In this document: positions 1-1,040 of the stretch, one piece after another
Position numbering within the stretch: position 1 is the stretch's first letter
Layout: the number at the start of each line of letters is the position of its first letter
From: an uncultured delta proteobacterium
GTDB taxonomy: Bacteria > Myxococcota_A > Polyangia > Polyangiales > B10-G4
Assembly: GCA_963727445.1 (NCBI GenBank)
Contig: CAVSGI010000013.1
Span: forward strand, 273,316 to 337,315
DNA length: 64,000 nucleotides
Reading direction: 5' to 3'
Program-made: the position numbers and the translations under genes
The notes under the pieces: model-generated
Database searches by the model: none
Told to the model about the DNA's origin: nothing
Seen by the model: only the letters and a program-made list of their open reading frames with translations

Positions 1-1040
1 GCGGAGATCGGGACGCTGATCACGGCGCTCGGCTGCGGCGTCGAAGGCGGCGGCAACTTCGACATCGAGAAGCTCCGCTACCACCACGTCATCATCATGA
101 CGGACGCGGACGTGGACGGCTCACACATCCGGACGCTCCTGCTGACCTTCTTCTACCGGCAGATGCCGGAGATCGATCCGCAGCGGCTACCTCTACATCG
201 CCCAGCCGCCGCTCTATCAGCGTGAAGAAGGGCAAGAAGGAGCGTTCCTCAAGGACGACCGGACGCCCTCGACCGCTACCTCCTCGACCTCGGCCTCGAC
301 GGGCTGGTGGTGCGCACCGAGAGCGGACAGGTGCCGCTCTCCGGCGAGCCGCTCCGCCGCCTCCTCGACGATCTGCTCGCGCTGGCGCGCGATCGTGCGG
401 GGCATGGAGCGCCGCGCGATGCCGCTGGTTCTCGAGGCGCTCGTCCGCGCGACCGACCTGGACGCGCCGGCCCTCGCCGACCGCGAGCGCATCGACGCCG
501 CCATCGAGAGGATGAACGCGTACATCTCGGCGCGCGACCCCGACCTCGCTGCCCCTCGACGTCAGCTATCACCGCGACGAAGAGCACGACCGCTTCGCCG
601 TCGACGTGCATCCCGCGCCGGCGTCGAGCCGCGCGCCACGGCGCATCGACTTCGAGCTCCTCGACGACGGCGACTTCGCAGAGCTGCGCGCAGATCCACG
701 CGGGCATCGTCGCGCTCGGCGAGCCGCCCTTCTACGCCATCGGTCGACGACACGGCAGCCGCGAAGGGGATCGGCGACGTCGGACGCGCTCTTCGACTGG
801 GTCGACAAGCGCGCCAAGAAGGGCATCAGCATTCAGCGCTACAAGGGTCTCGGCGAGATGAACCCGGACCAGCTCTGGGAGACCACCATGGACCCGGAGA
901 CACGCACGCTCCTCCAGGTTCGTATCGACGACGCCGTCGAGTCCGAGGAGCTCTTCAGCATCCTCATGGGCGACCAGGTCGAGCCCCGGCGCGAGTTCAT
1001 CGAGAAGAACGCGCTGAACGTTAAGAACCTCGACATCTGA
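1..1040 (+). pseudogene. gyrB: DNA gyrase subunit B, C-terminal ~345 codons. The reading frame is broken by at least 8 frameshifts between ~184 and ~790. The conserved C-terminus '...[34 protein letters not shown]...[19 protein letters not shown]' is intact in frame 3.
   Basis: GyrB Toprim and C-terminal motifs ([49 protein letters not shown]) were read directly. Successive conserved segments lie in different frames (see finding). Confidence 0.8.

Follow-up and report, generated by a model that had tools for sequence, protein, structure and literature searches.

Published work describes how small indels in long-read assemblies impair gene prediction by introducing frameshifts (10.1101/2021.08.23.457338; PMC9262707). 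In nanopore and PacBio errors of this kind, single-base indels split a conserved open reading frame (ORF), and codon bias and conserved residues are left intact. Pseudogenes in neutral decay are a second class, in which multiple frameshifts break an ORF that was once functional. In programmed frameshifting, such as the +1 shift of prfB and the -1 shift of dnaX, the full-length product depends on a change of frame. The gyrB gene described here resembles all of these systems on its face: it is a conserved ORF split by single-base indels over intact codon bias and conserved residues, it is frameshifted many times, and a full-length product would need changes of frame.

The gene stands at the start of the window, the whole 64-kb stretch of DNA that was analysed. 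Positions 1-1040 of the plus strand are the C-terminal third of DNA gyrase subunit B and end in the stop codon TGA at 1038-1040. In an intact 830-aa GyrB from a Polyangiales MAG (L002), they match approximately residues 483-830, and its alignment to the window begins at residue 483. The N-terminal ATPase and transducer domains fall upstream of position 1. When this GyrB was used as the tblastn query, three HSPs were obtained, in frames 1, 2, and 3, with a joint E value of 4e-95. A stitched conceptual translation returned thousands of GyrB matches, the best being from Myxococcales/Polyangiales metagenomes at 60-75% identity, and the corrected translation is 70-75% identical to Polyangiales GyrB sequences. 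Pfam domains Toprim (PF01751), GyrB_hook (PF21249), GyrB_insert (PF18053), and DNA_gyraseB_C (PF00986) occur in the corrected translation in the order typical of GyrB. As given, the gene is not a single uninterrupted reading frame, and at least eight frame changes are needed to read it through. Of 16 alternative ORFs in 1-1337 that were looked up, the source annotation apparently calls just one as a gene, a 60-aa tail ORF at 858-1040. A tblastn search of the 64-kb window with the L002 GyrB found no second gyrB or parE and nothing else that is gyrB-like. The locus is apparently the ordinary, single gyrB of an uncultured Polyangiales-like myxobacterium.

The arrangement of gyrB, a small ORF, and a gene for a TM2-domain protein is the same in the window and in three other contigs. 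These are L084, a JGI contig with an uninterrupted gyrB of 817 aa; L085, an NCBI metagenome contig that carries the last 191 codons of gyrB without interruption; and L001 (ENA ERZ25039533 contig_29597, 1.07 Mb), the closest long contig. L084 and L085, the close intact references, were reached via the neighbouring TM2-domain protein. In a scan of genome contigs for gyrB, relatives had at most 68% identity among the matches listed. Two genes serve as synteny anchors in the window: the small ORF of 148 aa (1934-2380, plus strand), which is kept beside gyrB in relatives, and the 136-aa TM2-domain protein (2390-2800, minus strand), which adjoins gyrB in L001, L084, and L085. Farther downstream are inositol monophosphatase, mpl, and clpB, in the order found in L001. 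Because this gene order is common to relatives, the window gyrB is the orthologous locus and not a stray second copy. A hypothetical gene lies between gyrB and the 148-aa ORF (1054-1827, minus strand) and is called as 257 aa on the Logan contig L082. Its GC3 is high only in the 3' 180 codons; it has no Pfam match and is absent from the closest relative, L084.

The initial annotation had counted at least eight frame changes within about 600 bp of this gene, and the count is borne out by tblastn, by a hidden-Markov frame plot, and by alignments to homologues and to L084 and L085. In a three-frame translation, GyrB-homologous segments alternate among the plus-strand frames between approximately 175 and 783. 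The frame plot covered the whole window (69% G+C, GC3 of about 0.9) and was made with a frame-aware hidden-Markov model of codon-position G+C. Within 1-1040, the best frame switches every 65-155 nt (+1, +1, +2, +3, +1, +3), with one short stretch wrongly placed on the minus strand. Elsewhere in the window, a change of frame on the same strand falls at the stop codon of the upstream gene, with a sole exception near 51564. With frameshifts allowed, protein-to-DNA alignment to five homologues yielded 9-11 events, and most of the sites were recovered with every reference.

The window is 85.7% identical to L084 at the DNA level (about 86% for L084/L085). Against these two relatives, nine unambiguous, isolated 1-nt gaps are found, at 175 (+1), 220 (+1), 245 (-1), 259 (-1), 375 (+1), 550 (+1), 689 (+1), 742 (+1), and 782 (+1). 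One length difference is in frame (a +3 codon at 273), and two are ambiguous (+6 nt over 609-645 and +3 nt over 752-763). Gaps are absent from 1-174 and 783-1040. The likeliest reading of the eight frame transitions is about 11 events, or up to about 15 should the differences of in-frame length also be errors.

The damaged patch occupies 175-783 of the plus strand and holds approximately 11 single-base indels, mostly insertions, or about one per 55 nt. It is bounded by two clean flanks. The 5' flank (1-174), read in frame 1 (AEIGTL...FFYRQMPEI), is gap-free against L084 with 93% nucleotide identity. The 3' flank (784-1040), read in frame 3 (DALFDWVD...NLDI, then the stop), is gap-free against L084 and L085, and its portion at 870-1040 is also gap-free against L082. 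The first event is an extra G at 175 (GAGATC[G]ATCCGC), which moves the reading from frame 1 to frame 2 and is seen with all five references. An insertion at 220-221 (TATCA[G]CGTGAAG, frame 2 to 3) is followed by a deletion at 245-247 (GAGCG-TTCCTC, frame 3 to 2) that recovers FLKDD, and by another at 259-268 (GACGA-CCGG, C3 to C2, frame 2 to 1); a single +1 event covering both 245 and 259 is the alternative. Insertions are again found at 375-379 (GATCT[G]CTCGCGC, frame 1 to 2) and 548-551 (CTCGC[T]GCCCC, frame 2 to 3). An ambiguous cluster at 606-645 can be read either as a -1/+1 pair (frame 3 to 2 to 3) or as several insertions, with a surplus of 6 nt relative to L084/L085. The last three sites are insertions at 689-690 (CTGCG[C]GCAGATC, frame 3 to 1), 742-743 (GCCATC[G]GTCGAC, frame 1 to 2), and 779-783 (GACGTC[G]GACGCG, frame 2 to 3). 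The alternation of frames had thus been drawn correctly at the outset, and three details of that map are revised. The switch from frame 1 to frame 2 that was placed at about 410 lies at about 375-379; the pair or cluster at 609-645 was missed, and frame 2 there matches the RAGVSTRST of relatives; and the final step from frame 1 to frame 3, which stands as a transition, is probably two +1 events (742 and 782) by way of frame 2.

The patch spans the end of the Toprim domain, the hook, and the GyrB insert domain, the variable part of gyrB. Its nucleotide identity to L084 is 81%, between two blocks of about 93%. The events are strongly clustered, with at least nine in 609 nt against one detected in about 57 kb of other coding sequence, and the chance of such clustering is about 1e-17 (a binomial value, hand-computed and post hoc).

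The other long genes of the window are whole. TamB (35021-39253, 1410 aa), the Omp85 protein (32007-35042, 1011 aa), Mpl (9392-10810, 472 aa), and ClpB (798 aa) are uninterrupted, and the description of tamB, the Omp85 gene, and mpl as intact holds for each as one ORF. Only one further frameshift was found in the other 63 kb, at about 51556. An extra C in GGACCTTC on the minus strand at this site divides the coding sequence into an ORF for a Ser/Thr kinase with AAA_16 (51565-53436) and one for its TPR continuation (49689-51587). The reading across the site runs ...ACARPD and goes on in another frame as FIESHPDLFSAAEVHAIQLRGLS (FIESHPDLF...), and the source annotation calls the 632-aa TPR ORF separately. 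This frameshift may be an isolated error of the consensus, or the gene may be a true pseudogene from a large paralogous family, and the site calls for the same caution as the gyrB patch. Two divergent ORFs, at 5767-7482 (minus strand) and 7310-8245 (plus strand), seem to share about 60-170 nt at their 5' ends; the extent varies with the choice of start codon. Thrombospondin type 3 repeats are present in the minus-strand ORF.

The coding sequence beneath the indels was read in a corrected frame, from which the nine unambiguous indels were taken out and in which 609/645 was handled as a -1/+1 pair. The corrected patch is free of stop codons and has a GC3 of 0.946, compared with 0.966 and 0.929 in the flanks. 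Of the 40 columns that do not vary across at least seven homologues, it retains 39, and the sole changed column is an L to I replacement that is common to the intact relative L084. The amino acid identity of the damaged segment is 65% to each of two homologues (P0001 and P0003), which are 60% identical to each other. In relative-rate tests of the patch, the window shows 89 amino acid differences from the outgroup L002 and L084 shows 96; with L001 as the outgroup, the values are 71 and 74. The broken gyrB copy therefore carries no extra substitutions, because it is no further from the outgroups than its intact sister L084. Excess substitutions, in-frame stops, and loss of invariant residues, the marks of a pseudogene, are all missing from the patch. 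The coding sequence under the indels is intact and evolves like its intact relatives.

That an essential gene at its syntenic locus carries indels without substitutions points to a consensus error of local extent, and the damage observed is of indels only, on an otherwise intact coding sequence and within one stretch. The approximately 11 indels in 175-783 are very probably an error of the local assembly or consensus, and the organism itself would be free of them. A local assembly or sequencing defect had been the leading option in the initial annotation, and it is favoured by the indel-only damage, by the syntenic locus, and by relatives that read through. Seven proteins of the window have exact matches on a single 505,600-bp contig (NCBI/ENA). 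This contig looks like a long-read-type metagenome assembly, and in assemblies of that type a stretch poorly supported by reads retains ORF-breaking indel errors. Three causes of the localization would fit, and they are not exclusive of one another. Coverage may taper at a contig end where the window starts. Cross-mapped reads from co-occurring relatives, with the conserved blocks as anchors, may have corrupted the consensus of the hook and insert. The stretch may also have stayed unpolished because unambiguous short-read coverage was lacking. A local drop in coverage may likewise have left it with poor read support. We infer from the sequence pattern both that the indels would be unsupported by reads and that the localization has a cause of this sort. 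All of the patch falls in the window's first 800 nt, which has a chance of about 1% unless a contig end lies at the start of the window, and this position fits an assembly cause. So does its coincidence with the variable segment between the blocks of about 93% identity.

The sites themselves are unusual for such errors. Homopolymer runs of three or more do not touch any of the indel sites. A shared homopolymer or methylation-motif signature was considered and rejected, as the sites have no common motif. Indels away from homopolymers are atypical of a polished nanopore consensus, and this counts against a routine artefact. The indel density in the patch also exceeds that of the noisy relative L001 by a factor of 5-10. 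The sharp localization in an otherwise clean 64 kb means that a special cause is needed, and the high density, together with the missing homopolymer link, leaves a slim chance for real mutations.

Independent contigs are available for the neighbouring sequence. Two Logan contigs from run ERR11594398 match the window without gaps: L082 over 870-4446, with 6 substitutions, and L083 over 8339-9504, with 1 substitution. Both come from the population of the window or a nearly identical one. A literature search on the run accession gave no match. Because these independent contigs match gap-free, the window assembly is sound at 870-4446 and 8339-9504. L082 ends at 870, a position within the conserved C-terminal gyrB block. 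The differences between the window and the contigs of this run are substitutions only, at 908, 936, 1552, 1957, 2215, 2374, and 8398 (99.8-99.9% identity), and they indicate that the run contains a second strain with 0.17% divergence. The G to A change at 936 would replace Ala by Thr in IDDAVE, a conserved GyrB motif. Scans of metagenome contigs with an exact 3'-end pattern and with a gap-tolerant pattern across sites 175 and 220 gave no match, and a protein search with the corrected patch gave one distant match and no near-identical fragments. An independent contig of the same population spanning 175-783 was not found in these metagenome-contig and protein searches.

Frameshifted gyrB genes are present in other assemblies. 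Compared with the window, L001 has at least four frameshifts in gyrB (L001:8475-11047) and several in mpl and clpB (L001:15600-17100 and 19100-21000). L001 is a noisy long-read assembly, and its gene calls are fragmented as a result. The protein database holds dozens of Toprim-only GyrB fragments of 76-127 aa (P0138-P0188) from long ENA, NCBI, and JGI contigs of up to 5.4 Mb, and these slip into the wrong frame just past FFYRQMPE. The makeup of this set is a selection effect of the query peptide, a frame-1 read-through, and all of the fragments are from other organisms. Since the shift positions differ among them, the set looks like widespread assembly error and does not point to a hot spot. 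Judged by these sequences, frameshift-split gyrB looks common in public assemblies.

A particular form of assembly artefact is a chimeric consensus, in which the patch would be a mosaic of reads from at least two related strains or species and would match no real molecule. The limits of the patch coincide with the limits of the highly conserved blocks, the short-read contig L082 breaks at 870 inside such a block, relatives of 86% identity occur in similar samples, and run ERR11594398 contains the second strain at 0.17% divergence. The distance of the corrected patch to relatives, however, is what a single lineage would give, and a mosaic is a tentative reading that we consider possible but doubtful.

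A real gyrB pseudogene, inactivated very recently and accompanied by a second gyrB elsewhere in the genome or confined to a defective sub-population, is improbable. The ORF as given is unquestionably broken at eight or more places, and the frameshifted gene at about 51556 makes some real decay in the window conceivable. Against this, the copy occupies the gyrB locus that is syntenic in relatives, the 64-kb window holds no second gyrB, and the patch has unchanged GC3 with no substitution excess, stop codon, or loss of conserved residues. In bacterial mutation-accumulation lines, base substitutions outnumber indels by about ten to one. Eleven indels in 600 nt produced by real decay would therefore be expected to come with dozens of random substitutions, and none are seen. 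The decaying second copy that had been offered as an option is accordingly disfavoured, both by synteny and by the relative-rate test.

Still harder to credit is that the indels are real and that about 11 single-base changes of this kind, with no substitutions, arose abruptly at one spot in the syntenic gyrB. Were they real, they would imply either an unusual local mutational process that makes indels only or another gyrase B gene, thanks to which this copy became dispensable very recently. Programmed recoding, in which ribosomal frameshifting, transcriptional slippage, or RNA editing would restore a full-length GyrB, has in its favour the sole point that an essential gene looks frameshifted, and it is excluded for practical purposes, in line with the initial view of it as unlikely: the 8-11 shifts run in both directions, 1-1040 contains no XXXYYYZ heptamer and the sites no homopolymer of three or more, and L084, L085, L002, and P0001 stay in one frame through every site, so no shift is conserved.

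The localized assembly or consensus error remains the preferred reading, and the indel patch is almost certainly not a biological feature. The main value of the result is in quality control, as a locally unreliable stretch of the contig is flagged. gyrB serves as a marker both of phylogeny and of completeness, and an annotation of this stretch would wrongly present it as a pseudogene or in fragments. The patch has no biological implication unless reads prove the indels to be real.

Compared with the systems described above, the window gyrB comes closest to long-read indel errors, such as those in L001, where gyrB, mpl, and clpB are all damaged. It differs from the usual errors of this kind in that the damage is limited to about 610 nt, consists mostly of insertions, and has no tie to homopolymers. 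Unlike pseudogenes in neutral decay, it shows no extra substitutions, no stops, and no acceleration of rate, and it is an essential gene at its syntenic locus. Unlike prfB and dnaX, it has no slippery sequence, its many sites shift the frame in both directions, and its orthologues are without them.
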